From: an uncultured Candidatus Saccharibacteria bacterium
GTDB lineage: Bacteria > Patescibacteriota > Doudnabacteria > UBA920
Direction: 5' to 3'
NCBI GenBank assembly: GCA_964512925.1
Contig: CAZEKH010000005.1
Span: 4,325 to 68,324, forward strand
Length of the DNA stretch: 64,000 nt
Shown: piece after piece, positions 24,659-58,684 of the stretch
How the letters are laid out: each line of letters begins with the position of its first letter
Numbering within the stretch: the stretch's first letter is position 1
Made by a program: the position numbers and the translations under genes
The notes under the pieces: model-generated
The model's input: the letters and a program-made list of their open reading frames with translations, nothing else
Told to the model about the DNA's origin: nothing
Databases searched by the model: none

Positions 24659-24690
24659 CAACCCGATGTAAAATCCGGGTTGTTTTGCTT
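24659..24690 (+). terminator. rho-independent terminator after pnp (CAACCCG..CGGGTTG + TTTT)
   Basis: 7-bp stem, 10-nt loop, T-run. Confidence 0.55.
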
Positions 24691-28467: not shown

Positions 28468-29635
28468 ATATCCTATTTTAGTAAAGAAAAAAGAAAACCT
28501 GGCCTATTTGACTGGCGAGGTTTTTGATTTGCGGACACAGGAGTATCTTTTGGTAAAACCGCTGAAGTACGCGGATAAACGCGGAAGCTATACAGGGGTT
28601 GTTGGGTTTGGCAGCGGTCTGGAAAAAATTTCCTGGGCGCCAAAGTCGGACACTTTATACAACATCGGAAAATATGTGAAAGGCTATGAGAAGTTAAATC
28701 TTGAATATGGGTTTACTTTGGGGGAACATAAGTACATAAAAAGCAAGATCAAGAATTTGAGATTGCAGGTAAAAGTCCAGCCGGAACATTCTCCGGTGGA
28801 TGAGATAAGGCAGATAAAGACCCCGGATGAAATATTGAAGATTAAAAAATCAATGGAAATAGTTAAACAGGTATACAAGTATACTAGGAAGCAAGCGGTG
28901 AAGAGCGGGATGACGGAAGCAATTTTGGCAAAATACATTGAAAATTTGGGTTTAAAGTTGGGGGCAGGCGAGCTGGCGTTTCCGGCCATAGTAGCAAGCG
29001 GTAAGAACGCGGCAATGCCACACCACGTACCTACGAAAAAAAGGTTGAAGCCGGGTGAAAGCATTATTTTGGATTTTGGTTTTTTGGCCGGAGGCCAATC
29101 CGCCACTGGCGGAAAATCTTCATCTAACTACTGCAGCGATTTTACTCGTACGGTTTTTATCAAAAAAGTTCCAAAAAAGCTGGAAATAGCTTATAATCAG
29201 GTGGAGAAAGCTTATTTAGGGAGTATGGAATACATTAACTCCCCCAACCCCCGCCCGAACGCCGCAGGCGGGCAGGCCTCTTTGAAAAAGAGGGAAAAAT
29301 TCACCATCTCCTCCTCTTTGACAAAGAGGAGGCAGGGAGGAGTTCGTGCAGAGGGTGTTTACCAAAAATCAGTCGAGATTTTAGCCGAAAAAAAACTGGA
29401 TAAATATTTTATCCACTCGCTTGGCCATGGTACCGGCCTTGAGATCCACGAAAGGCCTTATTTGGGTCCAAAGTCAAAAGACATTTTAAAAGAAGGAATG
29501 GTTTTCAGTATAGAACCTGGCGTGTATTTTCCCGAGTATGGAGGGGTTCGGATAGAAGATTTGGTCTATATGGAAAATGGAAAAGTAAAAAAATTTATAG
29601 AAGTACCAACAGATTTAAAGTCTAATATTTTATGA
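28427..29635 (+). CDS. M24 family metallopeptidase (Xaa-Pro aminopeptidase-like) with in-frame palindromic insertion; start uncertain (ORF opens at 28346)
   Basis: 'HSLGHGTGLEIHERP', 'FSIEPGVY', 'VRIEDLV' M24 metal-ligand motifs. Confidence 0.65.
   Translation: MEHQRLRQLQQEIKYPILVKKKENLAYLTGEVFDLRTQEYLLVKPLKYADKRGSYTGVVGFGSGLEKISWAPKSDTLYNIGKYVKGYEKLNLEYGFTLGEHKYIKSKIKNLRLQVKVQPEHSPVDEIRQIKTPDEILKIKKSMEIVKQVYKYTRKQAVKSGMTEAILAKYIENLGLKLGAGELAFPAIVASGKNAAMPHHVPTKKRLKPGESIILDFGFLAGGQSATGGKSSSNYCSDFTRTVFIKKVPKKLEIAYNQVEKAYLGSMEYINSPNPRPNAAGGQASLKKREKFTISSSLTKRRQGGVRAEGVYQKSVEILAEKKLDKYFIHSLGHGTGLEIHERPYLGPKSKDILKEGMVFSIEPGVYFPEYGGVRIEDLVYMENGKVKKFIEVPTDLKSNIL
29237..29344. repeat. composite palindromic element inside the M24 peptidase gene (three hairpins: CCGCCCG..CGGGC, CCTCTTTGAAAAAGAGG, CCTCCTCTTTGACAAAGAGGAGG; outer arms AACTCCCCC/GGGAGGAGTT)
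   Basis: 108 nt (36 codons) encoding NSPNPRPNAAGGQASLKKREKFTISSSLTKRRQGGV. Confidence 0.65.
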
Positions 29636-31929: not shown

Positions 31930-32277
31930 ATGAAACGCAAGCCATATTTAGTACATAACGCAAAAAATTTAAGAACGCGTTCAACTATATGGGAAACAAA
32001 ACTTTGGCAATATTTGAGAGGCGGTAGATTTTTTGATTATAAATTTAAAAGACAAGTTGCTATAGAAAAGTATATCGTAGATTTTTGTTGCAATGAAAAA
32101 AAGTTGATCATTGAGTTGGATGGGAGTGGATATCAATTTTCAGAAAAAGATAAAATTCGTGATAAATTTTTTGAAGGGCTAGGTTATAAAATCTTACGTA
32201 TTTGGAATAATGATATTGACAATAATTTTGACGGGGTTCCATTAAGAATTAAACAAAATTTCGATGAAAAAAAATAA
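31930..32277 (+). CDS. DUF559/Vsr-like endonuclease-domain protein
   Basis: 115 aa; 'FKRQVAIEKYIVDFCC...LIIELDGSGY...RDKFFEGLGYKILRIWNND' matches the DUF559 restriction-endonuclease-like fold pattern. Confidence 0.6.
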   Translation: MKRKPYLVHNAKNLRTRSTIWETKLWQYLRGGRFFDYKFKRQVAIEKYIVDFCCNEKKLIIELDGSGYQFSEKDKIRDKFFEGLGYKILRIWNNDIDNNFDGVPLRIKQNFDEKK

Positions 32278-32283
32278 ACAAAA

Positions 32284-32329
32284 ACAACCTCTCCAGGCCT
32301 CCGGCCACCCTCCCCAAACTTGGGGAGGG
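32284..32329. repeat. palindromic element (CAACCTCTCCAGGCCTCCGGCCA + CCCTCCCCAAACTTGGGGAGGGG) immediately 5' of nfo
   Basis: GGGGAGGGG arm lies ~9 nt upstream of the ATG giving MAVGCHVSAAGG. Confidence 0.65.
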
Positions 32330-32338
32330 GAAAGCGGT

Positions 32339-33388
32339 ATGGCTGTGGGTTGTCATGTTTCTGCGGCAGGCGGAGTGTGGAATGCGCCGAAGAATGCAAA
32401 GGATTTAAACTGCGAAACTTTCCAGATATTTACCCGTCCGCCTATGGGCGGACCTGCGCCGAAAATAGACCAGGAGGGAGTAGAGAAATTTAAGATGGAG
32501 ATGGAGAAGTATTATTCTTCATTCCATACAGAAGATGCAGAACCCCTCCCAACCTCCCCTTTGGTAAAGGGGAGGGGTAAGGTAGGTTCCCCCTCTTTTT
32601 CAAAGAGGGGGTTAGGGGGAGTTGGTTTTGTTGTTCACTGCCCGTACATTGTAAATTTTGGTTCAGCAAAGAAAACTACTTTTCACGGATCTATTTCTAT
32701 AGTTTCTGAAGAACTAAAAAGGGCTAATTCGCTTGGAGCTCGGTTTGTTATGACTCACTTAGGCAGCTTTAAGGATTTGGGCCAGGAAAAAGGTATGGTG
32801 CAGGCGCAAAAAGGTTTGGAAGAGGTTTTAAAAAAGTACGAAAGTTCTATAAAAAACAAACAGCCCTCCCAATTTCTTTTAGAGATAGCGGCAGGACAAG
32901 GTGAAGTTATAGGTGATACTTTTGAGGAACTGGCCGAGCTTATGGAGCCGCTAAAAAAATACAAAACTTTCGGGGGAATCTGCTTTGACACTCAGCATGC
33001 TTGGTCTTCGGGATATGATATAACCAAAAGCGAATGGGTAAAACAATTTGAGAAGACTATTGGCCTAAAATGGCTGCGGATGAGCCATATAAACGACTCT
33101 AAAGTTGATTTAGGCGGCAAAAAAGACCGTCACGAGCATATTGGCGAGGGGAAGATAGGAGAAAAGGGGATATATAATTTTATTCGAAATTTAAAATTGA
33201 ACCTGCCTGTCGGCAAGGCAGGGATTGAAGATTTAAACACCCTCTCTACCCGAAGCGGGTCCCTTCTCTCCCAGAAGGGAGAGATTAATAATGTTGTCTT
33301 TGACTCTTTTGCCTTGATTTTAGAAACTGAACATGATAAAGTGAAAACAGACATAAAAATCTTAAAAAAATTAAGGGAAAAAATATAA
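32339..33388 (+). CDS. nfo: endonuclease IV (AP endonuclease family 2) with two in-frame palindromic insertions; longer ORF opens at 32264
   Basis: 'VGCHVSAAGGV', 'ICFDTQHAWSSGYD', 'RMSHINDSK..DRHEHIGEGKIG', 'ALILETE' match Nfo metal-ligand blocks. Confidence 0.8.
   Translation: MAVGCHVSAAGGVWNAPKNAKDLNCETFQIFTRPPMGGPAPKIDQEGVEKFKMEMEKYYSSFHTEDAEPLPTSPLVKGRGKVGSPSFSKRGLGGVGFVVHCPYIVNFGSAKKTTFHGSISIVSEELKRANSLGARFVMTHLGSFKDLGQEKGMVQAQKGLEEVLKKYESSIKNKQPSQFLLEIAAGQGEVIGDTFEELAELMEPLKKYKTFGGICFDTQHAWSSGYDITKSEWVKQFEKTIGLKWLRMSHINDSKVDLGGKKDRHEHIGEGKIGEKGIYNFIRNLKLNLPVGKAGIEDLNTLSTRSGSLLSQKGEINNVVFDSFALILETEHDKVKTDIKILKKLREKI
32541..32625. repeat. double-hairpin element inside nfo (CCTCCCCTTTGGTAAAGGGGAGG and CCCCCTCTTTTTCAAAGAGGGGG)
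   Basis: 85 nt encoding PLPTSPLVKGRGKVGSPSFSKRGLGGVG between conserved KY..S and (I/V)xxH..Y(L/I)xN(L/F)G blocks. Confidence 0.7.
33201..33288. repeat. triple-hairpin element inside nfo (CCTGCC..GGCAGG, ACCCGAAGCGGGT, TCTCTCCCAGAAGGGAGAGA)
   Basis: ~88 nt encoding LPVGKAGIEDLNTLSTRSGSLLSQKGEI, extra relative to E. coli Nfo between GEGxIG and ILETI blocks. Confidence 0.6.
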
Positions 33389-35535: not shown

Positions 35536-37131
35536 ATGAATAGATTTTACCTTACAACCACCCTTCCATACGTAAATTCAGACCCTCACTTGGGGTTTGC
35601 TTTGGAAATGGTTTTGGCGGACACAATAGTTCGGTTTCAAAAATTGCAGGGTAAGGAAGTTTTTTTTAATACAGGCACAGACGAGCATGGTCTTAAGATA
35701 TATCAAAAAGCTTTAGAACGAGGTATAAGCCCAAAAGAGTACTGCGACGAATATGCAGAAAAATTTAAACAGCTGATGCCAGCTTTGGGGGTTTTGCCGG
35801 AGATACATTTCATACGCACCACGGACGAACACCATATAAAAGCCTGTCAGGAGTTTTGGAAACTGGTAGATAAAAATGGCTACATAGAAAAGAAAAATTA
35901 TAAGGTCAAATATTGCGTTGGCTGCGAGCTGGAAAAAACTGAAAGCGATCTGTCAGAAGAAGGAAAATGTTTAGTGCACCCGCATTTGGAAATAGAGATT
36001 CGCGAAGAGGAAAATTATTTTTTTAAGTTTAGCGCTTTCCAAAAACCGCTTTTAGAACTTTATGAAAAACAGCCGGATTTTGTTGTGCCGGATTTTCGGT
36101 TTAACGAGATTAGAGAGTTTGTAAAAAATGGACTTTCTGACTTTTCTATCTCGCGGCTTAAAGAAAAAATGCCCTGGGGCGTGCCTGTGCCGGGCGACGA
36201 CAACCACGTTATGTATGTCTGGTTTGACGCGCTTATAAACTATGTTTCAACGTTGGGTTGGCCAGAATACCACCCCTTTAATTCCCCTCCTATTTTAGGA
36301 GGGGAGGGCCAGAATGGCGGGGAGGTTAGTAATTTATTTCAAGAATTCTGGGGGACAAAAGAAAACCCTAACGGAATACAAATTGCAGGCAAGGACAACC
36401 TCCGTCAGCAGTCTGCTATGTGGCAGGCAATGCTTATGGCTGCGGGCCTGCCGAACAGTAAACAAATCATCATCCACGGCTTTATTAACTCCGGGGGGCA
36501 GAAAATGTCCAAATCTTTGGGCAATGTAGCGGATCCTTATAAAATAATTGAAGATTTAAAAATAAAAGGATTGAATAAACAACAGGCGACAGACGCGCTT
36601 CGGTATTATTTACTCAAAGAAATTCCTACTTTTGAAGACGGGGACTACACTTGGGATAGGTTTTTGGAAGTCTATAACTCCGACCTTGCCAACGGCATTG
36701 GCAACCTAACAAGTAGGATTTTGAAAATGAGCATAGCTAATTCAATTTTTCTCTCTCCAGGCGTGGAGAGAGTCCCCGACTCGTCCGCCAAAGCTTTAGC
36801 GGAGGAGGAAGGGGGAGAGAGGTCGCATGATAGTAATTCCCCAAACGATCAAAAAATTAAAGAGTTTATTTCCTCTTACCACTTAAAACTCGCTCTTGAA
36901 GAAATCTGGAAAGATATAAAATTCTGCGATGAATACATTCAAAAAGAAGAACCATTTAAAGTCGTTAAAGTAGACCCGGAAAAAGCAAAAAAGCAGATAG
37001 AGTTTTTACTTGGTAAACTAAAAGAGATAGCAGAAAACCTGCAGCCGTTTTTACCAGACACTTCCCAGCAAATAACAAACAGTTTAAAACCGCTTTCGGG
37101 AGAAATTCCACGGTTGTTTCCGAGGATATAA
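35536..37131 (+). CDS. metG: methionine--tRNA ligase (short form) with two in-frame palindromic insertions
   Basis: 531 aa; 'TTTLPYVNSDPHLG' HIGH-type motif, 'KMSKSLGNV'. Confidence 0.9.
   Translation: MNRFYLTTTLPYVNSDPHLGFALEMVLADTIVRFQKLQGKEVFFNTGTDEHGLKIYQKALERGISPKEYCDEYAEKFKQLMPALGVLPEIHFIRTTDEHHIKACQEFWKLVDKNGYIEKKNYKVKYCVGCELEKTESDLSEEGKCLVHPHLEIEIREEENYFFKFSAFQKPLLELYEKQPDFVVPDFRFNEIREFVKNGLSDFSISRLKEKMPWGVPVPGDDNHVMYVWFDALINYVSTLGWPEYHPFNSPPILGGEGQNGGEVSNLFQEFWGTKENPNGIQIAGKDNLRQQSAMWQAMLMAAGLPNSKQIIIHGFINSGGQKMSKSLGNVADPYKIIEDLKIKGLNKQQATDALRYYLLKEIPTFEDGDYTWDRFLEVYNSDLANGIGNLTSRILKMSIANSIFLSPGVERVPDSSAKALAEEEGGERSHDSNSPNDQKIKEFISSYHLKLALEEIWKDIKFCDEYIQKEEPFKVVKVDPEKAKKQIEFLLGKLKEIAENLQPFLPDTSQQITNSLKPLSGEIPRLFPRI
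36268..36327. repeat. palindromic element inside metG (CCCCTCCTATTTTAGGAGGGG) flanked by 8-bp direct repeat GCCAGAAT
   Basis: encodes FNSPPILGGEGQNGGEVS; GCCAGAAT at ~36261 and ~36309. Confidence 0.6.
36749..36822. repeat. composite element inside metG (CTCTCTCCAGGCGTGGAGAGAG, CCGCCAAAGCTTTAGCGG, G-rich tail AGGAGGAAGGGGGAGAGAGG)
   Basis: 74 nt encoding LSPGVERVPDSSAKALAEEEGGERS. Confidence 0.55.
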
Positions 37132-38163: not shown

Positions 38164-39219
38164 TTGTCAATGCTAATCGACACCCACGCTCACATTAACT
38201 TTAAAGCTTATGAAGACGACGCAGAGGAAGTTTTGCGCAGGGCTTTTGAGAGTGGGGTTATGGTTATAAACGTGGGGACGCAGTTGGACACTTCAGAGCA
38301 GTCTGTTAGGCTTGCTGAGAGGTACTCTAAAAAAAATATCCCTCCTCACTCCTCCCTTAATTTAAGGGAGGAAGCAGCACAATTACCCCCTCTTAAGGTA
38401 AGAGGGGGTCAGGGGGGTGATATTAAGGCGGTTTATTCCGTAGTTGGACTTCATCCCGTTCATACTTACTCCCAGCACGTAGACGAAGAAGAGAGTCATT
38501 TTAAAACGCGGGAAGAAAAGTTTGACTATGAGGCGTATAAAAAATTGGCACAAAATGATTTGGTGGTGGGGATTGGGGAATGTGGACTTGATTATTTTAG
38601 ATTGAAGATTGATGATTTAAGATTGCCAATAGAACAAATTAAAGAAAATCAGAAACAGGCATTTATGCAACAGGTGAGGCTGGCAAAGGAACTAAACAAA
38701 GCTTTGGTCATACACTGTAGGCCTTCGGAGGGGACGAGTGATGCGTATGAAGATATACTGGCAATTCTGGATTCAGAATTGCAAATTTCAAATATCAAAT
38801 TACAAAATTCAACAAACTCCGCTACACCCTCTACCCTAAACCCTAATCCCTTTCGTTTTGAGATCCACTCTTTTACTGGTACCCCCGACATAGTCCAAGA
38901 GTTTTTAAAGCGTGGCGCGTATGTGGGGCTAAATGGTATAATTACATTCGGAGACCGAAAATCAAAAAATATAGCGACGTCCGCCTCGGGCGGAGATAAG
39001 AGTGGAAACATGGACAATGTTTTGAAAACTGTCCCTTTAGACCGTATTGTCCTTGAAACTGACAGCCCGTATCTTACGCCAAAACCAAACCGGGGCAAAA
39101 GAAACGAGCCTTCCTATGTCCGTTTTGTTGCCGAACATATTGCTCAAGTAAAAAATATAGATTTTGCCCAAGTCGAAGAGCAAACCACAAAAAACGCAAT
39201 TAATTTGTTTAAGTTATAA
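38164..39219 (+). CDS. tatD: TatD-family metal-dependent DNase/hydrolase with in-frame palindromic insertion
   Basis: 351 aa; 'IDTHAHIN', 'VGLHP', 'IGECGLDY', 'ALVIHCR', 'LETDSPYL' TatD blocks. Confidence 0.8.
   Translation: MSMLIDTHAHINFKAYEDDAEEVLRRAFESGVMVINVGTQLDTSEQSVRLAERYSKKNIPPHSSLNLREEAAQLPPLKVRGGQGGDIKAVYSVVGLHPVHTYSQHVDEEESHFKTREEKFDYEAYKKLAQNDLVVGIGECGLDYFRLKIDDLRLPIEQIKENQKQAFMQQVRLAKELNKALVIHCRPSEGTSDAYEDILAILDSELQISNIKLQNSTNSATPSTLNPNPFRFEIHSFTGTPDIVQEFLKRGAYVGLNGIITFGDRKSKNIATSASGGDKSGNMDNVLKTVPLDRIVLETDSPYLTPKPNRGKRNEPSYVRFVAEHIAQVKNIDFAQVEEQTTKNAINLFKL
38335..38424. repeat. nested double-hairpin element inside tatD (CTCCCTTAATTTAAGGGAG, CCCCCTCTTAAGGTAAGAGGGGG; outer arms AATATCCCTCC/GGGGGGTGATATT)
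   Basis: 90 nt = 30 codons encoding KKNIPPHSSLNLREEAAQLPPLKVRGGQGGDIKA between RYS and VYSVVGLHP. Confidence 0.7.
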
Positions 39220-39223
39220 ATTT

Positions 39224-39691
39224 ATGGGAGAAAAACCAGATTTTTTAAGGACTGAATTTATGGCTGGGGCTAAAAGTCCAAGAGAACAGATTGAAAGAAC
39301 AATAGAACATCAGAAAGATTTGCTTTATAACATTAGTTTAAAGATTGCTGAAAAATCTGTTGATGGAAATAAAAGTACCTATGAATGGGTTCAAAATAGA
39401 CATAAATTTATATTCGAAAAAGAACTAAAATTAGCAAATACTTTTACACTTACGTCAGGGGATGAGAAATGGGAAAATCATTTAAGTACACCAATTGCTG
39501 GGCAACTTAGAGTTACAACCTTTAAAGGTGGAGAATATGCTCAAGTTGTGTCCTCCTATGGTTTTTTAAAAGTTCTGGATACACACATAACAAATTTAGA
39601 AACAGGAAAAACCGATGAGGAAATTAAAGAATATTTAATTGAAAAAGTTAAGGATATATTGGAGAATTGGGCATTGTTAATGCCAGAATAA
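39224..39691 (+). CDS. hypothetical protein (internal start of ORF 39164..39691, just after tatD stop)
   Basis: 155 aa. Confidence 0.35.
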   Translation: MGEKPDFLRTEFMAGAKSPREQIERTIEHQKDLLYNISLKIAEKSVDGNKSTYEWVQNRHKFIFEKELKLANTFTLTSGDEKWENHLSTPIAGQLRVTTFKGGEYAQVVSSYGFLKVLDTHITNLETGKTDEEIKEYLIEKVKDILENWALLMPE

Positions 39692-39774
39692 TTATAAAGT
39701 TAACTATTCAAAAAAAAATTAAAAACCCACTGCGCTGCGACGTGAAATTTAGGGACAAAACTTTTTTAATAAAA

Positions 39775-42393
39775 ATGTCAAGTAGATATAATCCACAGAA
39801 AATTGAAACTAAGTGGCCCTCCTACGCTAAAGCTACGAAGGGCAGGCAAAAGGTTTCTAAATATAAACCCCAGGAAATTGAACGTAAGTGGCAGTCACTG
39901 TGGTTTAAGAAGAAGCCTTTTTCTGCTGTGGAAAATAAGAGAAAGAAAAAATACATTTTAGTTGAGTTTCCTTACCCTTCGGGAGCGGGTTTACATATGG
40001 GGCACTTAAGGCCGTATGTGGCGGCAGATGTAACTGCTAGGTTTTTGCGCCTTACCGGGCATGAGGTTTTGTTTCCTATGGGCTGGGACGCGTTTGGGCT
40101 GCCGGCGGAAAACTACGCCATAAAAATGGGAGTGCACCCGACCATAACCACCAAGAAAAATGTGGCGAACGCAAAAAAACAAATGTTGTCGTGGGGGCTT
40201 TCTTTTGACTGGAAAAGGGAGATAAACACAACTGACCCTAACTACTACAAATGGACGCAGTGGTTGTTTTTGCAATTTTTCAAAAAAGGTTTGGCGTTTG
40301 AAAAAACCGGACTTATAAACTGGTGTCCAAAAGACAAGACAGGGCTTGCCAACGAAGAAGTAATAGACGGCAAATGCGAACGCTGCGGAACAGTAGTTGA
40401 AAAAAAAGAACTTCGCCAATGGTACCTAAAAATCACAGACTACGCTGAGAAATTATTAGCTGGTCTAAAGGATTTAACCGAATGGCCTGAAGCAGTCAAG
40501 CTTCAGCAGGAAAATTGGATAGGGAAAAAGACGGGCATAAACATTACATATGAGATTGAAGGTAAAAACAAAACAATAACTTGTTTTACCACGCGTCCTG
40601 ATACTAATTTTGGCGCAACTTTTATCGTTATTGGTCCTGAGCATCCTTTGATACAGCAAAATGAACTTGGTATTCAGAACTATGACGAAGTTAAAAGGTA
40701 TATCGAAAAAGCAAAGGAACAGACTGAGCAAGACAGGACTGCGGAGAATCGCAAAAAAACAGGAGTCTTTACTGGGCTATATTGCATAAATACTTTAAAT
40801 AACTACAAGATGCCTTTGTATGTAGCAGATTATGTTCTTGGAAATGTGGGCACAGGGGCTGTGGTCGGGGTGCCTGGGCACGACAAACGGGATTTTGAGT
40901 TTGCGCAAGTTTTTGGTATTGAAGTAAAAAGAGTTGTGCAAAAAAATGTAGACGATACTGGAATTATTGACCATATAGACAAGGTTCAAGAAGAAGAAGG
41001 GAAGATGGTAAATTCCGGTTTCTTAAATGGGCTTGATATTCACGAGGCCACTGAGAAAATAATGGACTATATGGAAAGTGAGGGTTATGGTAAAAGAGTT
41101 ACCAACTACAAACTCCGTGACTGGGTGTTTTCGCGCCAGCGTTACTGGGGAGAGCCGATACCTTTAATTCATTGCGATCCGCCAGCTGGCGGATGTGGCG
41201 TTGTGGCTGTACCGGAAAAAGATTTACCGGTTAAACTTCCAAATGTAAAAAAATACGAACCGACGGGAACAGGAGAGTCGCCGCTGGCTGGCATAGACAA
41301 ATGGGTAAATACCAAATGCCCGAAGTGCAAAGGCCCGGCTAAAAGGGAAACCAACACCATGCCTCAGTGGGCGGGCAGCTCGTGGTATTGGCTTAGGTAT
41401 TTGGACCCTAAAAATACCAAAACTTTTTCCGACATAAAAAAACAGAAATATTGGACACCGGTAGATGTGTATTTTGGCGGGATGGAACACACGACTTTAC
41501 ATTTGCTTTATTCACGTTTTTGGAATTTGTTTTTATACGACCAAAAGCTGGTTACAGAAAAAGAACCTTACAAGAGGCGTTTTCCGCACGGGATAATTTT
41601 GGGCCCAGATGGGGAAAAAATGTCTAAGAGTAGAGGCAACGTGGTGGATCCGCAGAAATTGGTCAAAGAATTTGGCGCTGACGCGGTACGTATGTATCAG
41701 CTGTTTTTAGGTCCTCACGGGGATATGATTGCTTGGAATGACCAGGGGATAGTCGGAGTGAAAAGGTTTTTGGATAGAGTTTGGAGTTGGGCACAGCAAT
41801 TGAATATTGAAGATATAAGATTGAAGATTGTAGACAGTGAGATAGTAGAACGGGAGATAAACAAACTGGTTAAGAAAATCACTGAGGACTTGGAAGCAAT
41901 GCGGTTTAATACCTGTATTTCGGCTTTTATGTCGTTTTTAAATGAAGTCAAAGACGAGCAAGTGTCTTTAGAAACAGTTAGAAAGTTTTTGATTCTTTTG
42001 AGCCCGTTTGCGCCGCATATTGCTGAAGAACTACTTGAGAGAGTTAGAGAGTTAGAGAGTAAGAGGGTGAGTAGATCAGTTAATCAGACAATCAGTAAAT
42101 CAGAAAGTCAGAAAGTCAAAACAAAACTCCCTCCAACCCCCTCTTTGTCAAAGAGGGGGAGCAAGGGGGAGTTCGCAGAGTGGCCTCAGTGGGACGAGAG
42201 TAAAATTTTAGAAGCTACAGCAGAGATCATCGTCCAGGTTAACGGCAAAGTCAAAGGCAAGGTAGTTGTGCCAAACCAAAGCAGTGAAGAAGTGGTAAAA
42301 GAAGCTATGCTGAAACTCCCGCAGTTTTCGTCTCTTGGTGAAATAAAAAGAACAATCTATGTGCCCAATAGACTTATTAACTTAGTTATTTAG
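39775..42393 (+). CDS. leuS: leucine--tRNA ligase; start uncertain (ORF opens at 39667)
   Basis: 'PYPSGAGLHMGHLRPY' HIGH motif, 'GEKMSKSRGNVVDP' KMSKS, CP1 editing domain, C-terminal 'QVNGKVKGKVVV'. Confidence 0.9.
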   Translation: MSSRYNPQKIETKWPSYAKATKGRQKVSKYKPQEIERKWQSLWFKKKPFSAVENKRKKKYILVEFPYPSGAGLHMGHLRPYVAADVTARFLRLTGHEVLFPMGWDAFGLPAENYAIKMGVHPTITTKKNVANAKKQMLSWGLSFDWKREINTTDPNYYKWTQWLFLQFFKKGLAFEKTGLINWCPKDKTGLANEEVIDGKCERCGTVVEKKELRQWYLKITDYAEKLLAGLKDLTEWPEAVKLQQENWIGKKTGINITYEIEGKNKTITCFTTRPDTNFGATFIVIGPEHPLIQQNELGIQNYDEVKRYIEKAKEQTEQDRTAENRKKTGVFTGLYCINTLNNYKMPLYVADYVLGNVGTGAVVGVPGHDKRDFEFAQVFGIEVKRVVQKNVDDTGIIDHIDKVQEEEGKMVNSGFLNGLDIHEATEKIMDYMESEGYGKRVTNYKLRDWVFSRQRYWGEPIPLIHCDPPAGGCGVVAVPEKDLPVKLPNVKKYEPTGTGESPLAGIDKWVNTKCPKCKGPAKRETNTMPQWAGSSWYWLRYLDPKNTKTFSDIKKQKYWTPVDVYFGGMEHTTLHLLYSRFWNLFLYDQKLVTEKEPYKRRFPHGIILGPDGEKMSKSRGNVVDPQKLVKEFGADAVRMYQLFLGPHGDMIAWNDQGIVGVKRFLDRVWSWAQQLNIEDIRLKIVDSEIVEREINKLVKKITEDLEAMRFNTCISAFMSFLNEVKDEQVSLETVRKFLILLSPFAPHIAEELLERVRELESKRVSRSVNQTISKSESQKVKTKLPPTPSLSKRGSKGEFAEWPQWDESKILEATAEIIVQVNGKVKGKVVVPNQSSEEVVKEAMLKLPQFSSLGEIKRTIYVPNRLINLVI
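42036..42173. repeat. composite insertion in leuS 3' region: tandem GAGAGTTA and AATCAG/AAGTCAG repeats followed by nested palindrome AACTCCCTCC..CCCCCTCTTTGTCAAAGAGGGGG..GGGGGAGTT
   Basis: encodes ERVRELESKRVSRSVNQTISKSESQKVKTKLPPTPSLSKRGSKGE between conserved APHIAEEL and WPxWDE blocks. Confidence 0.65.
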
Positions 42394-42486
42394 GTTTTTG
42401 ATTTTAGTATCGAACAAAAACAAATACAATGACAAACTTAAGAAATAAATCTTTCAATCTTAAATCATTAAATCATAAATTTTAAA

Positions 42487-43635
42487 GTGCTTCTAAATTT
42501 CCATCTTCCATCCTATTTCACCAAAAGCGTAAAAAAAGAAATTGGCGAACTTTATGCCCATAGCGCCATACTAAATATGGCATCTTCAATGATGCTTTTG
42601 TTTGAACCGATTTTTTTGTACGCGGTTTTGGGTTTTTCCATAAACCAGGTAATGCTGTTTACCGCTATCGTCTACGGGGTTTATATTGTTTTTATCCCTT
42701 GGGGAGGAAAAATCGCTTCCTTTTACGGGTACAAACACGCCATAGCATTAAGCGTGCCGTTCCAAATCATCTACTGGGCAATGCTTATAGCTTCGCAGGA
42801 TGCGAGCCATCTGGCTTTTGCCGCGGGCATATTTTACGGACTTTCCAAATCTTTATATTGGCCTGGATTTCATAGCCTGATGGCCAGGTATGCTGACCAG
42901 GGACAAGTGGGACGCGAGTTTGGCGTGGTTTACGCGCTTATAAGCATCACTCATATAGCCGGGCCGTTTTTGGCCGGATATATATCCCAAAATTTTGGCT
43001 TTACTGCCAGCTTTATAATCGTAATGATACTTCAAGCAGGAAGCCTTTTGCCTTTATTTAAGGCAAAGGAAGTTTTTTTGCCAAAGGTATATAGCTATAG
43101 TCAGACTTTGGCTTTGTATCGGCAGTTTCCGAAAAAAGCATTGGGCTACTTGGGTTTTGGGGAAGAAATGCTGGTCTTAAACATTTGGCCGATATTCATA
43201 TACATTGTAGTGAAAAACTACGAAGAAGCTGGACTTTTGGCCACTGGCTCAAGCCTTGTCGCCGCGCTCTTGGCTTTAATAGTTGGAAAAATTACGGACC
43301 AATACTCAAAAAGAATTCTCATAAAACTAGGAGCTTTTTTTACAGCAATGATTTGGATTGCAAGATACATAGCCAATTCCGCAGGTACTGTTTTTGCAAC
43401 TGACACCATGTCACGCGCCAGTAAGGAGATGGCTTTCATACCGATTTCCACTGCCACCTACATCCGCGCGGAAAATACCCACGTGGTGCCGTATGTGGTA
43501 TTCTTTGAACAGAGTTTGGCAATTGGCAAACTCCTTGCCTGTATCCTTGGCATAATTATATTCTCGCTTACTGGCAGTTTTATGGCTTTGTTTGTGCTCG
43601 GTGCTTTGTTTAGTTTGCTTTATATGTTTATTTAA
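42487..43635 (+). CDS. MFS-type transporter
   Basis: 382 aa, ~12 TM helices. Confidence 0.5.
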   Translation: MLLNFHLPSYFTKSVKKEIGELYAHSAILNMASSMMLLFEPIFLYAVLGFSINQVMLFTAIVYGVYIVFIPWGGKIASFYGYKHAIALSVPFQIIYWAMLIASQDASHLAFAAGIFYGLSKSLYWPGFHSLMARYADQGQVGREFGVVYALISITHIAGPFLAGYISQNFGFTASFIIVMILQAGSLLPLFKAKEVFLPKVYSYSQTLALYRQFPKKALGYLGFGEEMLVLNIWPIFIYIVVKNYEEAGLLATGSSLVAALLALIVGKITDQYSKRILIKLGAFFTAMIWIARYIANSAGTVFATDTMSRASKEMAFIPISTATYIRAENTHVVPYVVFFEQSLAIGKLLACILGIIIFSLTGSFMALFVLGALFSLLYMFI

Positions 43636-47533: not shown

Positions 47534-48538
47534 ATGGACAGTGTTATTCCTGTTACACAAATACCACAAAATTCTACTAACGAATCTTCGAATTCGCTTG
47601 TTCCTTCAGGATACCCTGGAACTGCTACAACGCAGGATTTTTTAGCAAATGACAACCCGTTTCAGCCCCAAGTTCCTAATGCGCTTAAAGCGGAAGAAAA
47701 AAATCTTTCTGAAGACAGAGTTTCTTACGCTGACGCAAAAATCCAGGAAATTGAAGTTTCTAAAATAGTTGCCAACCCTTTCCAGCCAAGAAAAACTTTT
47801 AACCCGGAGGCTTTAAAGGAGTTGGCTGATTCTATCCGCGAACACGGGGTGATTCAGCCTTTGGTGGTTACCGAAACACCAAATGGTTATGAAATTGTGG
47901 TAGGGGAAAGGCGTTTTCGGGCAAGCCAGCTGGCTGGTCTTTTGAAAGTTCCAGCTATCGTAAAAAGCCAGATGGTGGACCAGACTAAGCTGGAAGTAGC
48001 GCTCATAGAAAACATCCAAAGGCAGGAGTTAAATCCTATAGAAGAAGCGATGGCCTATGACAGGCTAATGAAGACTTTTGACTTGACCCAAGACCAGGTG
48101 GCAAAGAAAGTTGGAAAGTCGAGGCCCGCAGTTGCCAACACTGTCAGGCTCTTAAACCTGCCTGCGGAAATCCAAAGAGCTTTGATAGAAGGCAAAATCA
48201 CCGAAGGGCACGCCAGGGCGCTTTTGGGGCTCATAGACAAAGACAAGATGCTTTTAATGTTTCAGAAGATCCAGGAAGAAGGTTTAAATGTGCGCCAGGT
48301 GGAGCTGAAAGTCCGCGAGCTTTCCATCCGCAGGCGGATGGACGCGGCAATGCCCGACCCAAAGCTGATGGCGCTTGAAACCGAGCTTCGCGGCCGTTTG
48401 GGCACCCAGGTGAAGATCCAAAAACAAGGCACCGGCGGCAGGATCACTATAGAATATTTTTCCGAAGACGAGCTAAATGAGATCATCCATAAAATGGCAG
48501 AAAATAAAAATCAGGATAGCCAATATTTAACGGTTTAA
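47534..48538 (+). CDS. parB: ParB/Spo0J chromosome partitioning protein with ~60-aa low-complexity N-terminal extension
   Basis: 'IVANPFQPRKTF', 'GVIQPLVVTE..YEIVVGERRFRA' ParB box, HTH 'QVAKKVGKSRPAVANTVRLL'. Confidence 0.85.
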   Translation: MDSVIPVTQIPQNSTNESSNSLVPSGYPGTATTQDFLANDNPFQPQVPNALKAEEKNLSEDRVSYADAKIQEIEVSKIVANPFQPRKTFNPEALKELADSIREHGVIQPLVVTETPNGYEIVVGERRFRASQLAGLLKVPAIVKSQMVDQTKLEVALIENIQRQELNPIEEAMAYDRLMKTFDLTQDQVAKKVGKSRPAVANTVRLLNLPAEIQRALIEGKITEGHARALLGLIDKDKMLLMFQKIQEEGLNVRQVELKVRELSIRRRMDAAMPDPKLMALETELRGRLGTQVKIQKQGTGGRITIEYFSEDELNEIIHKMAENKNQDSQYLTV

Positions 48539-48620
48539 AACATATATCCTTGGCCTTTGATTTTTAAGCTTTTTCAGATTTTACCTATTTTTTTAAGTGC
48601 TTTTTATCTCAGTCTCTGTT

Positions 48621-48644
48621 GTCATTCCCGCGAAAGCGGGAATC
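48621..48644. repeat. TCCCG/CGGGA hairpin element (GTCATTCCCGCGAAAGCGGGAATC)
   Basis: 8-bp perfect stem. Confidence 0.5.
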
Positions 48645-48704
48645 TAAGTTTGAGAGAATTTTCGGTACTAACAGATATAAACTGTTTTTCTGTGGAAAAC
48701 TGCA

Positions 48705-48733
48705 TTTGACAAGTTTTTGCTAGGGGTATAATA
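48705..48733 (+). promoter_or_regulatory. near-consensus sigma70 promoter (TTGACA-N15/17-TATAAT)
   Basis: gcatTTGACAagtttttgctaggggTATAATat. Confidence 0.55.
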
Positions 48734-48739
48734 TATATA

Positions 48740-48893
48740 AAATCTATGCAAAGAAATTTTTCCCACAACCTCATTATTTCTCTCCCGGTCGTCAAGACCT
48801 GGGTGTTTAAAATGCGGGGTAGTGTGGGAAAGAAAAGATAACAGTAGTATAAGTAAAGTTTCCACACCATACCCCGCAAAGAGCGGGTTTTTT
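48740..48893 (+). ncRNA. candidate ~150-nt small RNA between the consensus promoter and an intrinsic terminator (identity unknown)
   Basis: no credible ORF or SD; TTTCCCACAACC pairs GGTAGTGTGGGAAA with alternative partner TTTCCACACC; terminator CCCCGC-AAAGA-GCGGG + T7 at 48871..48893. Confidence 0.35.
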
Positions 48894-49010
48894 TCTGGGT
48901 AAGAGAAACTTAGAGAAATAGAATGTTAGAGAATTAGAGAGATAGAGTGTTAGAGAGGAAGAAAGTTAGCAAAGTAGATAAAATGAACTTTAAAAATTTT
49001 TTGTAGTTTT

Positions 49011-49128
49011 ACCCCCTCTCCCGTGTGGGAGAGGGTTGGGGTGAGGTTTCAGCGATGGTAATAAAACCAAGGTTTGTTATTATCAAACATTATTACCTCA
49101 CCCTAGCCCTCTCCGTGATCGGAGAGGG
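49011..49128. repeat. symmetric composite of two palindromic elements in opposite orientation around an AT-rich inner hairpin
   Basis: CCCTCTCCCGTGTGGGAGAGGG+TTGGGGTGAGGT ... ACCTCACCCTAGC+CCTCTCCGTGATCGGAGAGG. Confidence 0.65.
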
Positions 49129-49475
49129 AATCTGAAAAAGGCTTGAAATATTTATTATTTGTTCTTTAAAACTTAACACCAACCGCCCACAAAAGTTTTT
49201 CCAACAATTGATTTACTGATTATCAGATATTCTGATCAACTTGGAACTTCTTTTGTGTGCAGTCCGTTTGTTTTTATTTCTTTTCCTCCCGCTGGTCGGG
49301 ACGGACACAAGATGGAATCTCATTCCAAAGCACATAAAAACAAAAAAGGCACACGAAAGTTTGGGCAGATCTTGGCTTACCAGCCACTAAAAAATCCCGT
49401 TTTCAAAATTCGGGATTCTGCCCATAGCTATCCGGGCCGCGCAATTTGCTGGCCCATTCGTTCGAGGAGGAAAAA

Positions 49476-49679
49476 GTGGATAGACCAAAGGCATCCACGG
49501 GTGTTGGTCAAAAATTTTGTCAAAGTTGTCGTAGAACTTCAACTTTCATCACCGTGCAAGGTGACGGACATGAGATTGAAGTTTGTGAAAACTGTTTGAC
49601 AAACGGCGAACCAATATCTAGATTCAACGATCCGGATTATGCTTCGGATGTATCGGCCATGAGACTAATCATGGTCTAA
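49476..49679 (+). CDS. hypothetical small zinc-ribbon protein (GTG start after GGAGG SD)
   Basis: 67 aa; CQSC..(17)..CENC; locally GC-rich patch. Confidence 0.3.
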   Translation: MDRPKASTGVGQKFCQSCRRTSTFITVQGDGHEIEVCENCLTNGEPISRFNDPDYASDVSAMRLIMV

Positions 49680-49808
49680 CCAGCAACAGACTTAAAGAGC
49701 AAGTACTTGGGTAGTACCCTGCAATTATACCGCTCTTCAGGTCTTAACCCCGGGGTTCACCAGCTGACCACCATCGGCTAGTGGATCCCGGGCCACTCAA
49801 TTTTTTCT

Positions 49809-49846
49809 TCCTCTCCGTTATCGGAGAGGGTAGGGTGAGGTAACGG
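49809..49846. repeat. palindromic element (CCTCTCCGTTATCGGAGAGG + GTAGGGTGAGGTAACGG)
   Basis: same family, reverse orientation. Confidence 0.65.
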
Positions 49847-50013
49847 ACTCAAAATTCAAATCAGATTTATAAATCATTTAAACTTAAAATCCCCATTTTG
49901 GTTGGGAATGACGGAAAAAACATAAAAATTTCATACCCCCAAAAACCTATTAAATTTTTTGATAAGTTCTTGGGCGCATGAAAGCGCTCGATATTGGTTT
50001 TGTTGGAGGAACA

Positions 50014-50169
50014 ATGAGTGACACTAAACCGCAGGAGCCTGCAATTCGCGCCACAAATAAGGGTCTTAAAAAACCCCGACCACATTACGAGGTCGTAGTA
50101 CACCCGGAAACCCGGAGTGTGGATGTGATCCTAAAACCGTGCGAAGAATGCAAAACCTGCAAGACCTGA
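50014..50169 (+). CDS. hypothetical small Cys-rich protein (C-terminal CEECKTCKT)
   Basis: 51 aa from internal ATG with GGAGGAACAATG SD; followed by strong terminator. Confidence 0.35.
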   Translation: MSDTKPQEPAIRATNKGLKKPRPHYEVVVHPETRSVDVILKPCEECKTCKT

Positions 50170-50179
50170 CAGGTTTTTA

Positions 50180-50252
50180 GGCAGAGCCGCTACTAATTTA
50201 GTCTTTCTTAGACTTTTTTAGCAGAGGCTCTGCCACTATTTTTTTTATTTTT
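50180..50252 (+). terminator. long nested hairpin GGCAGAGCC..AGTCTTTCTTAGACT..GGCTCTGCC followed by T-rich run
   Basis: 9-bp outer stem + inner palindrome + TTTTTTTTATTTTT. Confidence 0.55.
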
Positions 50253-50262
50253 AAATTCGGGT

Positions 50263-50294
50263 GTCAAACTAGTCACATATGTGACTAGTTTGAC
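50263..50294. promoter_or_regulatory. perfect 32-bp palindrome GTCAAACTAGTCACATATGTGACTAGTTTGAC
   Basis: fully self-complementary; architecture shared with 46814..46849. Confidence 0.4.
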
Positions 50295-50308
50295 AGAGGT
50301 TGGGTTTT

Positions 50309-50330
50309 TGGTTGGGATGCTTTGGAATCC
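50309..50330 (-). pseudogene. degenerate copy of the tRNA-Pro 3' terminus
   Basis: TTTTTGGTTGGGATGCTTTGGAATCC vs tRNA TTTCTATGGTCGGGATGCTGGGAATCG. Confidence 0.4.
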
Positions 50331-50452
50331 TTTTCGCTGCGACTCGTAGCCGGGGCGTTATACTCAAGCATTCCAAATAGTCGTGCTTTTCTCATGCACT
50401 TCGATTCCAATAATTTTTATACCAAATAAAAAATACCGAAATTATTTCGGTA

Positions 50453-50473
50453 TTTTTTATTTGGTCGGGATGC
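50453..50473 (-). pseudogene. copy of the tRNA-Pro 3' terminus (acceptor 3' strand + CCA + flanking T-run), 20/21 identical
   Basis: TTTTTTATTTGGTCGGGATGC vs TTTTTTCTATGGTCGGGATGC at 50560..50580; then a non-tRNA hairpin CCCCGAC..GTCGGGG. Confidence 0.5.
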
Positions 50474-50568
50474 CCCGACGACCACTTCGTGATGTCGGGG
50501 TAAACTGGGTATTTCCAACAACCTATAACCATAGAAAAAAGCGCGACACAAGAACACACTTTTTTCTA

Positions 50569-50642
50569 TGGTCGGGATGCTGGGAATCGAACCCAGACTA
50601 CATCCACCCCATGGACGCGTACTACCACTATACTACATCCCG
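50569..50642 (-). tRNA. tRNA-Pro (anticodon GGG), CCA encoded
   Basis: reverse complement: CGGGATG acceptor, D arm GTAT-AGTGGTA-GTAC, anticodon arm CGTCC-ATGGGGT-GGATG, T arm CTGGG-TTCGATT-CCCAG, CATCCCG-A-CCA. Confidence 0.8.
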
Positions 50643-50720
50643 ATTTAAACCTTAGATTAACGATGACTTATAAACTATTTTGTTCAGGTGCTTGTCCGCC
50701 GAAGCCTCGGCGAAGGAGGA

Positions 50721-50744
50721 TACTACCACTATACTACATCCCGA
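50721..50744 (-). pseudogene. 24-nt exact copy of the tRNA-Pro 5' portion (acceptor + D arm), no T arm
   Basis: TACTACCACTATACTACATCCCGA identical to 50620..50643; then hairpin CGCCGAAGCCTCGGCG. Confidence 0.5.
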
Positions 50745-50793
50745 ATTGCAAAACAGATAATATTCTAACAAAACTTAAAGTTATGGGCAAATG

Positions 50794-50802
50794 TGGTATA
50801 AT
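50794..50802 (+). promoter_or_regulatory. extended -10 (TGGTATAAT) 6 nt before the maf ATG (leaderless-type)
   Basis: aaatgTGGTATAATttttct-ATG. Confidence 0.35.
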
Positions 50803-56988: not shown

Positions 56989-57005
56989 AAAGTTATTGAA
57001 AATTT

Positions 57006-57037
57006 TCCGCCAGAGGCGGATCCCGCCTTGCGGGAAA
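57006..57037. repeat. double hairpin TCCGCCAGAGGCGGA + TCCCGCCTTGCGGGA + A-run (GGATCCCGCYTTGCGGGAAAA motif, copy 1)
   Basis: motif recurs twice in tandem at 59762..59809. Confidence 0.5.
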
Positions 57038-58189: not shown

Positions 58190-58603
58190 ATGCCAACAAT
58201 CAACCAGTTAGTCAGGCGAGGACGAAGCCCGCTTAAAGCCAAGAGAAAGTCTCCGGCTTTGCAGTTTCGTATGAACCTTTTAAAAAACAGGGAAGTGCCG
58301 ATGAAAACAGGAATTCCGTTTATGCGCGGAGTGTGCCTGAAAGTGTATACCACTACGCCAAAAAAGCCGAACTCGGCTTTGCGTAAAGTTGCCAAGGTCA
58401 AACTGACCAATGGAATGGAAGTTATCGCGTACATCCCAGGGGTTGGCCACAACCTCCAGGAACACTCAGTGGTAATGATCCGCGGCGGACGCGTTAAAGA
58501 TTTGCCTGGTGTCAGGTACCATATTGTTCGCGGAAAACTAGATACTCTCGGAGTCGACGGGAGAAAGAGATCAAGAAGCAAATACGGAACCAAAAGAAAG
58601 TAA
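58190..58603 (+). CDS. rpsL: 30S ribosomal protein S12 with ~15-aa insertion after the PAL motif
   Basis: 'PTINQLVR', '[16 protein letters not shown]', '[25 protein letters not shown]'. Confidence 0.9.
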
Positions 58604-58684
58604 ATCAGTAAAATCAGATATTAGTAAATCAGATCATTTTTTACTGATCTACTGATAAACTGACAAACTGATAACTAAAAACTT

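Follow-up and report, generated by a model that had tools for sequence, protein, structure and literature searches.

Repeat-derived DNA in the hinge of a leucyl-tRNA synthetase gene from a Doudnabacteria genome

We analyzed a stretch of 64,000 nucleotides from an uncultured bacterium of the Patescibacteria lineage Doudnabacteria (contig CAZEKH010000005.1, positions 4,325 to 68,324; hereafter the window), in which the leucyl-tRNA synthetase gene leuS carries a dense run of short repeats near its 3' end. Judged from the sequence, this run appears to be a genuine, correctly assembled and translated expansion of the hinge ahead of the C-terminal domain of leucyl-tRNA synthetase (LeuRS), specific to this lineage and built wholly of repeats. 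The best-supported view is that the insert is real-looking, tolerated hinge material rather than the sign of a broken gene, and that it is one locus of a broader phenomenon resembling the Rickettsia palindromic elements (RPEs). Most probably, selfish or slippage-prone repeat DNA has been tolerated in a permissive LeuRS hinge.

The repeat-built insert of leuS

The repeat segment was found within a single intact open reading frame (ORF) at 39667-42393 (+), in a window with a G+C content of 40.5%. The probable start is the ATG at 39775, which gives a leuS gene (leucine--tRNA ligase; 39775-42393, +) of 872 codons. The gene is intact, with the editing domain, the HMGH and KMSKS motifs and the C-terminal domain, and its product matches the Pfam families PF00133, PF13603 and PF08264 (catalytic, editing and anticodon-binding domains). 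The protein is identical to P0001, which was matched once among 5.8 billion protein clusters. The next-best LeuRS homologues were about 55-78% identical, with the best-matching Patescibacteria/Doudnabacteria LeuRS at about 70%, and those with names were from Patescibacteria or Candidatus Doudnabacteria.

The hinge comprises 49 codons (42034-42180, +; LERVRELESKRVSRSVNQTISKSESQKVKTKLPPTPSLSKRGSKGEFAE) bounded by ...APHIAEEL and WPQWDE, compared with 14 codons in most orthologues; it corresponds to residues 754-802 of the 872-residue protein and to 790-838 in P0001 numbering. Repeat DNA accounts for 46 of the 49 codons, and the upstream border of the arrays is ...GCT GAA GAA CTA (AEEL). ORF reading and orthologue alignment both confirmed the claim of an earlier note on this DNA that there is an additional in-frame segment between APHIAEEL and the WPxWDE block. 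The size given there, ~45 extra residues, was an overestimate: because orthologues already carry a 14-residue linker, the net gain is ~35 residues. In alignments with PDB entries, 37 residues (window 42058-42168) had no counterpart in solved LeuRS structures.

The insert consists of two octamer arrays followed by a palindrome. The first array contains 3.5 copies of AGAGAGTT (42036-42069, +) and encodes ERVRELESKRV; its third unit reads GAGAGTAA instead of GAGAGTTA, and Tandem Repeats Finder reported it at 42038-42065 with 95% matches. The second contains five to six (A/G)TCAGNNN units (42075-42122, +) and encodes (R)SVNQTISKSESQKVK. ATCAG or GTCAG begins at 42075, 42083, 42091, 42099 and 42107, followed by GTCAA at 42115, and Tandem Repeats Finder described this array as 4.6 copies of AATCAGAA at 42082-42118 (86% matches) or, alternatively, as 2.3 copies of a 16-nt unit from 42075. 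The nested palindrome (42125-42173, +) encodes KLPPTPSLSKRGSKGEF and has a complete, symmetric 'head + hairpin' form in the order AACTCCCTCC-AA-CCCCCTCTTTG-T-CAAAGAGGGGG-AGCAA-GGGGGAGTT. Its inner arms (42137-42147 and 42149-42159) are 11 nt long and 100% complementary with a 1-nt loop, and its outer arms are AACTCCCTCC at 42125-42134 and GGGGGAGTT at 42165-42173. Direct reading, Tandem Repeats Finder and a repeat finder together recovered the two micro-repeat arrays and the palindrome that had been noticed earlier.

The palindrome is unusually stable, and the components of the insert are over-represented. As single-stranded DNA, a 59-nt piece containing it folded at -16.2 kcal/mol (z = -4.4), which none of 200 shuffles equaled. 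RNA prediction gave the same nested hairpin, and the octamer arrays contributed no structure. The 23-nt hairpin core occurred at 3 sites in the window versus none in 100 shuffles. The ATCAG-octamer pattern ATCAGNNNATCAGNNNATCAG had 8 matches in the window versus 0.05 expected, and TTAGAGAGTTAGAGAG, a dimer of TTAGAGAG, had 7 versus 0.45 expected, including intergenic matches at 48926-48965.

We infer that the insert is translated and has been filtered for frame and stop codons, because the frame is open, a TAG is avoided, and neither a T-run or terminator nor an Rfam match was found. Only the leuS frame is open across 42028-42176, while the other five frames contain 2-6 stops. A perfect (GAGAGTTA)n array would read ...GAG AGT TAG, whereas the deviating third unit gives AGT AAG, so that an in-frame TAG at 42061-42063 is avoided by one base (A rather than T at 42061). 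A terminator and promoter scan called no site at the leuS palindrome, and no T-run follows the hairpin. Rfam searches of the whole window at the gathering score, and of 41900-42500 and 48540-50800 at a relaxed E-value, returned no family for the palindrome or the arrays, only tRNAs and chance-level matches. The encoded peptide is net basic, with 7 K and 5 R versus 6 E.

We compared the hinge with homologues and found it to be variable. When the protein was aligned with 17 close homologues, the segment lying between APHIAEEL and WPxxDE was typically xxxLGGKKSLQxE in them, compared with 49 residues here. Among the 106 scorable of the 120 best homologues, the linker has 14 residues in 65 and 15-38 in 41, and the linker of this protein is the longest. 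The whole segment was shared by none of the 17 aligned orthologues and by none of the 120 best homologues. The palindrome was absent from the leuS genes of six related loci, read or searched with a model: L121-L123, which are syntenic with the window, and L125-L127, which hold more distant homologues of the window leuS.

The hinges of these relatives contain other repeats. Those of L125 (P0017), L126 (P0023) and L127 (P0020) contain (A/G)TCAGNNN units at strict 8-nt spacing, and the arrays begin at native AAT CAG (Asn-Gln) codons just after EEL, for example aATCAGctcGTCAGctcGTCAGctaATCAG. In L121 and L125, another dispersed element, ...CGCCAAGGCTA..GGACARGTC, lies inside the hinge array, where its frames give FAKATSDRS or RRQGYKGQV. 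The L122 hinge contains a CCTGCC-TTAT-AGGCAGG hairpin and the L123 hinge a CCCCTCGGCTTCGCTCGGG element. The leuS hinge is therefore an insertion hot spot, reused by different repeats among relatives, since 41 of 106 homologues are expanded there, several by ATCAG octamers and some by a different dispersed element. The (A/G)TCAGNNN array is a clade-level feature of this hot spot. Lineage specificity consequently holds for the segment as a whole, for the (AGAGAGTT) array and for the palindrome, but not for the octamer array type, which is shared by L125-L127.

The insert site is the junction of the anticodon-binding domain and the C-terminal tRNA-binding domain. In the alignments with solved structures, residue 559 directly precedes residue 561 in Mycoplasma mobile LeuRS (3ziu), and residue 790 is followed by 802 in Thermus thermophilus LeuRS (1h3n). 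The LeuRS C-terminal domain has been described as flexibly linked and in contact with the tertiary pairs and elbow of tRNA-Leu as well as the long variable arm (PMC3561953). An AlphaFold2 model extended the preceding helix through the ERVRELESKRV part, over roughly the first 20 linker residues, and gave a predicted local distance difference test (pLDDT) score <50 for P0001 residues 809-835, which make up the remainder of the insert. Roughly the C-terminal half of the basic, Ser/Lys-rich 49-residue linker is thus predicted by the model to be disordered.

Dispersed hairpins and tandem arrays

The leuS palindrome belongs to a family of elements dispersed in the window. Family members have a head AACYYCNCCC, a 2-5 nt spacer, a pyrimidine-rich arm, a 0-9 nt loop and a complementary purine-rich arm. 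The stem consensus is CCCTCYCC-loop-GGRGAGGG, and the head, AACCTCNCCC or AACTCCNCCC, stands on one side (in either orientation) or on both. In leuS, the copy has heads on both sides and is complete and nearly perfect. GC-rich hairpins with a stem of at least 8 numbered 53 in the window versus 17-28 in shuffles, and those in which a purine arm follows a pyrimidine arm numbered 23 versus 0-3. Twenty oriented units, the leuS copy among them, could be aligned with a conserved head (AACTCC/AACCTC), and compensatory double changes were found in 7 of the 8 consensus stem pairs, indicating that pairing has been kept between copies. A covariance model (R1) built from the oriented aligned units, with the leuS units among the seeds, gave 25 oriented matches at E <0.01, corresponding to ~18 distinct sites in 64 kb; 5 of the matches were non-seed. 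The leuS copy scored 37.0 bits (E 7e-07; + unit 42120-42163) and 25.1 bits (- unit 42135-42178), both units being seeds.

Twelve of 22 hairpins were located inside ORFs: in tgt (2), pepP, the AP_endonuc_2 gene (3-4), metS (2), tatD (2) and leuS. As ORFs make up 86% of the window, genic hairpins are approximately fivefold depleted relative to spacers, and this depletion would fit the purging of most genic insertions. The insert had been presented earlier as a feature of leuS; it is a single case of repeat families found across the genome, which also lie in frame in at least five other genes. We infer from its distribution only that the hairpin element is mobile.

In tgt, a family unit at 24801-24844 is in frame and encodes the N-terminal PPSLSKEGEGGV, and a second site (25666-25761) consists of a heptamer array, (ATATCAA)x5, followed by a complete family palindrome, LSLSPSPHEGREGVG, scoring 42.4 bits. 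This is the same array-then-palindrome layout as in the leuS hinge. The long copy in pepP, encoding an M24 peptidase (29237-29349), is in frame and also present in L121, with an additional nested CCCGCC..GGCGGG hairpin here. R1 detected three family hairpins (32308, 32553 and 32589) in the AP_endonuc_2 gene (32281-32628). A family hairpin lies in a variable loop of metS (36264-36332), which has a second repeat-derived insert at 36751-36849. The two family hairpins of tatD (38332-38426) form a 32-residue insertion absent from L121-L123; heptamer arrays follow at 38599 and 38772, and a heptamer array in this gene adjoins a degenerate palindrome. Between genes, an inverted doublet of family units (49010-49132; hairpin+GGGGTGAGGTT ... 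TACCTCACCC+hairpin) scored 38.1 and 38.2 bits and resembles a REPIN, the inverted doublet of repetitive extragenic palindromic (REP) sequences.

Short tandem arrays are likewise over-represented. With at least 3 copies and a score of at least 38, arrays of period 7-9 numbered 12 in the window, 6 of them in genes, versus a mean of 0.07 in 30 shuffles. Heptamer arrays were found at 24688, 25666, 38599, 38772 and 41799, and L121 and L123 each have 7 arrays of period 7-9, nearly all heptamers. An intergenic array of 7.5 copies of TTAGAGAG (48910-48969, +) has the same octamer as leuS 42036-42069, which bears out the intergenic recurrence of the GTTAGAGA-type repeat described in the earlier note. 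The spacer at 48910-49236 repeats the leuS trio, with (TTAGAGAG)n, family units (the inverted doublet) and, after the doublet and on the other strand, an ATCAG octamer array (49208-49236, minus strand). In the rpsL-rpsG spacer, two inverted ATCAG-type octamer arrays (58599-58674) form one 70-nt hairpin (-22.1 kcal/mol, z = -5.0), which lies between genes for two ribosomal proteins in a single operon. The pairing of arrays with hairpins is no more than suggestive.

We then compared the window with related loci. L121, L122 and L123 share the gene order pepP-M16-APendo-AI2E-metS-tatD-leuS with the window, and the order around leuS is syntenic with at least 5 independent assemblies. The repeat-bearing stretches of the window correspond in L121-L123 either to gaps or to different inserts that these relatives have acquired there themselves. 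The AP-endonuclease site holds two hairpins in the window; L121 has a single one there, and L122 and L123 lack any. No insert is present in the M16 peptidase of this genome or of L121-L123. In 82 kb of the six related loci, R1 gave 10 non-seed matches, located in tatD, pepP, the AP-endonuclease gene and spacers, with none in leuS. The family is thus clade-wide with lineage-specific sites, which provides indirect evidence for mobility.

Similar hairpins occur in other phyla. A scan for CCCCCTCTTTNNNAAAGAGGGGG with one genome per species found at least 120 loci, compared with ~1 expected by chance (a rough estimate from collection size and pattern length). The matches listed include Pasteurellaceae, Methylococcaceae, Omnitrophota, Nitrospirota, Dehalococcoidia, Planctomycetes, Saccharibacteria, other Patescibacteria and more. 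Among them, the head AACTCC/AATCTCC or its complement flanks the hairpin in 101 of 129, on both sides in 10. Stop-free stretches of at least 200 codons hold 26 of the 129 listed matches, several of them in the PSLxKRGxGE(F/L) frame found in leuS. In a metagenome-assembled genome of Dehalococcoidia (CAZDMY010000225.1; L008, 27-300), three hairpin copies with the head AACGCCCCC are spaced ~90 nt apart and alternate with (TTGGAAYT)-type short tandem repeats, a pairing of palindrome and microrepeat in a distant phylum. A search of the available literature found no description of such elements in the Candidate Phyla Radiation (CPR), and the only sequence-level match was a 46-bp repeat of Actinobacillus pleuropneumoniae.

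Additional repeat-derived stretches were identified in and beside leuS. A heptamer array, (ATTGAAG)x5.1, at 41799-41834 (+) encodes NIEDIRLKIV; at this second leuS site, the same heptamer is present in L122 and different heptamer arrays in L121 (11927-12082) and L123 (11912-12064). At this site, homologues including P0039 and P0056 share the motif EI(A/I)EAPH(S/A)K, and peptides encoded by heptamer arrays (KLQVTSDKLQV, KYQVASIK) come after it. KYQVASIK also occurs in L123 metS, so that two synthetase genes of that genome have received one and the same heptamer array. An 18-nt perfect palindrome, ATCCGCCAGCTGGCGGAT, at 41177-41194 (+) encodes the four-residue insertion PPAG, which is absent from 17 of 17 aligned orthologues. 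It belongs to a second, mostly intragenic mini-palindrome family, (A/G)TCCGCC-loop-GGCGGA(T/C), with further sites at 29085-29113, 32436-32453, 36784-36803, 38970-38998, 48323-48342, 50695-50714, 57004-57036, 59015-59039 and 61414-61434; the copy in pepP encodes LAGGQSATGGK, missing from three orthologues.

At the leuS N-terminus, an insertion at 39784-39846 (+) has a duplicated motif, RYNPQKIETKW / KYKPQEIERKWQ, around what looks like a third dispersed element family (SYAKATKGR; ...cctacgctaaagctacgaagggcagg). The duplicates are ~76% identical in DNA (hand count), and between them lies an element of 30 nt that encodes PSYAKATKGR. A related element (cttcgccaaggctacgtcggacaggtc; cttcgccaaggctacg..ggacaggtc) was found in differing frames in the leuS hinges of L121 and L125 and in the pepP N-terminus of L121. 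Directly after the leuS stop, in the spacer before a major facilitator superfamily (MFS) transporter gene, lies a 7-8-nt array of 4.6 copies of TAAATCAT (42446-42486).

LeuRS homologues of the Doudnabacteria type (P0002, P0006, P0009; L125 1270-4317, L127 3001-6039) are often 990-1025 residues long and carry an alpha/beta-hydrolase domain (PF00561/PF06821/PF12146), listed ahead of the editing domain; they are fusions of LeuRS with a hydrolase, and no such domain is present in the window LeuRS. In P0039, the alignment is poor beyond the anticodon-binding domain: from its end on, the C-terminal part, C-terminal domain included, is replaced by unrelated sequence.

Two further observations concern the surrounding DNA. 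A gene for a 115-residue DUF559 protein (Vsr-like endonuclease fold) was found in the window (31930-32277), L121 (2642-2992), L122 (1746-2102) and L123 (9602-9949), at differing positions in otherwise syntenic loci, which suggests a small mobile or selfish gene. The relatives also carry 23S_rRNA_IVP/bAvd-like and GIY-YIG minigenes. At 48700-48900, a near-consensus promoter (TTGACA, 17 nt, TATAAT; ~48707-48735) is followed ~140 nt on by a GC hairpin with a T-run (CCCCGCAAAGAGCGGGTTTTTTT; ~48872-48896); this stretch, without an ORF or Rfam match, is a candidate small RNA gene.

Explanations for the insert

The reading we prefer is that repeat DNA was tolerated in a permissive hinge. The 8-nt arrays would have arisen by replication slippage, with the (A/G)TCAGNNN array seeded by native AAT CAG codons, and one copy of the dispersed element (AACYYCNCCC - CCCTCYCC..loop..GGRGAGGG), if mobile, would have landed in the hinge. 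Such an element may spread through the genome, settling in spacers and also in genes whose proteins can accommodate it. Selection would act as a filter only, retaining copies that keep the frame, bring no stop and lie in a permissive loop or hinge. The resulting 49-residue linker would probably be nearly neutral and leave aminoacylation intact.

Several points weigh against this reading. The proximity of arrays to hairpins is weakly significant, with 3 of the 12 arrays within 60 nt and 93 of 5000 random placements as good (p ~0.02). A Pfam scan of 20 of the ~60 window ORFs found no transposase or REP-associated tyrosine transposase (RAYT), and inspection by eye of the copy borders found no consistent target-site duplication. 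An exact-protein look-up, together with the cluster of one member, gave no second allele of the leuS insert, and a scan of metagenome contigs with a 22-nt anchor matched only an unrelated leuS. The AlphaFold2 model is modest, with a mean pLDDT of 65 and an alignment of 18 sequences. Finally, the insert is net basic (12 K/R versus 6 E) and lies beside the tRNA-binding domain, making a benefit possible.

Such a benefit is the core of an adaptive explanation, in which the repeats were recruited for an improvement of LeuRS function in this organism, brought by a basic, flexible tether of greater length or by the mRNA hairpin. Examples would be extra non-specific affinity for tRNA, such as eukaryotic synthetases have through lysine-rich appendages, or a pause in translation that aids the folding of the C-terminal domain. 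The excess of K and R (7 and 5 versus 6 E) lies directly ahead of the domain described as touching the tRNA-Leu elbow and long variable arm (PMC3561953); the same hinge is lengthened in 41 of 106 homologues, and RNA folding predicts a stable hairpin. We nevertheless consider this explanation unlikely. An adaptive role is not favoured because the hinge content varies freely among relatives: it is wholly different between them, being the translation of whichever repeat landed. The same elements also occur in unrelated enzymes and spacers, the closest orthologues function with 14 residues, the peptide shows no conservation beyond the DNA-repeat constraint, and the 166-nt region taken as a whole shows no unusual degree of structure (z = -1.9). 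We regard as distinctly less probable a purely local origin, in which slippage and template switching produced the arrays and palindrome without transposition and the likeness to other copies reflects convergence or gene conversion. The ATCAG array does seem to grow from native AAT CAG in several lineages, half-units and degenerate copies are common, and the lack of a transposase among the 20 ORFs scanned and of a target-site duplication by eye is consistent with it. But the non-palindromic head (AACTCC.CCC) and its spacing are common to ~18 other sites here, 10 in relatives and loci in many phyla. The 23-nt core alone has 0 expected occurrences, and that one and the same nested structure of 49 nt should form locally more than once is very unlikely.

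An artefact of assembly or binning, by which a repeat-induced chimera or mis-join put repeat DNA into leuS, is conceivable given the metagenome-assembled source (a contig of 105.9 kb), the single record of the exact protein and the dispersed repeats, which could promote mis-joins; we give it very little weight. Nothing within the sequence supports a collapsed or mis-assembled repeat, the concern voiced in the earlier note. The repeat blocks are 30-50 nt, the arrays among them 30-45 nt, well below read length, and both flanks are the correct adjoining parts of leuS. The frame is kept over 49 stop-free codons with the would-be TAG avoided, compared with 2-6 stops in each of the other five frames, and the at least 5 independent assemblies with syntenic gene order hold analogous in-frame inserts. 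Least credible of all is that the segment never reaches the finished protein, being lost as an intron, an intein or by translational bypass, or that an internal terminator splits leuS. Split LeuRS genes occur in nature, as in Aquifex, and a stable hairpin does lie within the coding region here. However, a segment of 147 nt or 49 residues falls far below the size of group I or II introns and of inteins, the motifs of which are absent, and no Rfam match was found. A terminator is contradicted by the lack of a T-run after the hairpin and of any terminator- or promoter-like call there, and removal by the open frame and the visibly avoided stop.

A bolder proposal, which we advance tentatively and consider doubtful as a whole, is that the elements form a very widespread class of tiny 'head + pyrimidine/purine hairpin' repeats, not described before (head AACTCCCCC / AAATCTCCCCC, from Pasteurellaceae to Dehalococcoidia to CPR), which together with 7-8-nt arrays is actively invading essential genes of streamlined Patescibacteria at their hinges and loops. 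If so, new disordered basic segments would arise at reusable hot spots, RPE-like protein evolution would extend across phyla with a common mobilising mechanism, and the octamer arrays might be landing pads or footprints of the element. CPR/Patescibacteria genomes are ~1 Mb in size and are regarded as highly streamlined. Despite this streamlining, ~18 hairpin sites and a dozen 7-9-nt arrays were found in 64 kb, half of them translated within the essential enzymes LeuRS, MetRS, Tgt, TatD and PepP. If general, the phenomenon would explain many odd low-complexity inserts and length differences in CPR proteins, warn annotators and structure predictors of repeat-derived segments, and serve as a natural guide to places in conserved enzymes where insertions are permitted. 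The RPE paradigm, in which selfish repeats are a source of peptides, would then extend to another reduced-genome lineage and possibly across phyla.

Likeness to known repeat systems

MITEs, which are miniature transposable elements with inverted repeats, occasionally form in-frame fusions with host ORFs (PMC10969869). Like MITEs such as Correia, ERIC, Nezha and QMITE, the family here is small and non-autonomous-looking, and the leuS copy has terminal inverted repeats, AACTCCCTCC / GGGGGAGTT. The family is much shorter, however, most copies elsewhere are one-headed, and no consistent target-site duplication was seen by eye. Work by Mazel in 1990 and Elhai in 2008 reportedly described the cyanobacterial STRRs (short tandemly repeated repetitive sequences), which are heptanucleotide arrays, and very small hairpin repeats inserting into other sequences. 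The window likewise has dispersed arrays of 7-nt units, while the arrays of the leuS hinge itself have 8-nt units; the phylum and unit sequences differ, and the arrays here are repeatedly coding and stop-free.

In A. pleuropneumoniae, the 46-bp inverted repeat flanks capsule loci and is a possible rho-independent terminator or recombination site (PMC6008488). Its core and head (CAAATCTCCCC..CCTCTTTACTAAAGAGGGG) essentially agree with those of the cross-phylum matches, but it was described only between genes and not as a dispersed or coding element. Inverted repeats embedded in coding genes and translated are known from mitochondrial genes of Nematomorpha (PMC6649704). Those palindromes differ in being up to 284 bp long, perfect and mitochondrial, with both arms encoding conserved protein, and in not forming a dispersed family. 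CRISPR arrays, TIGR arrays and the variable region of a diversity-generating retroelement (DGR) were considered and dropped: a regular spacer-repeat array and a template repeat are both lacking, and the size does not fit.

By definition, REPs lie outside genes, and they have a GTAG or CGTC head (PMC3733652). The family here shares with REPs and REPINs a short conserved head joined to an imperfect palindrome, occurrence as singles in either orientation and as inverted doublets, and over-representation. It differs in its head, AACYYCNCCC (AACTCC/AACCTC) rather than GTAG/CGTC, and in the intragenic position of 12 of 22 hairpins. REPs and REPINs are mobilised by RAYT transposases of the IS200/IS605 type (Y1).

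RPEs are dispersed palindromic repeats found between genes and in frame in unrelated housekeeping genes of a small-genome bacterium, where the encoded peptide lies at sites compatible with the fold (PMC10969869). In the same way, the family here is in frame in tgt, pepP, the AP-endonuclease gene, metS, tatD and leuS at positions where the syntenic orthologues have gaps. RPEs are ~100-150 bp long and form defined Rickettsia families with a conserved peptide, whereas the elements here are 35-50 nt long, occur in a Patescibacteria host and are translated in all three frames (PSLSKRGSKGE / PLFxKEGxGGV / PPLxERGG). No sequence relation to RPEs was apparent by inspection, and the family type occurs in many phyla and is accompanied by 7-8-nt arrays. 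The closest counterpart of the leuS insert and its relatives is the RPE in behaviour and the REP/REPIN in anatomy.

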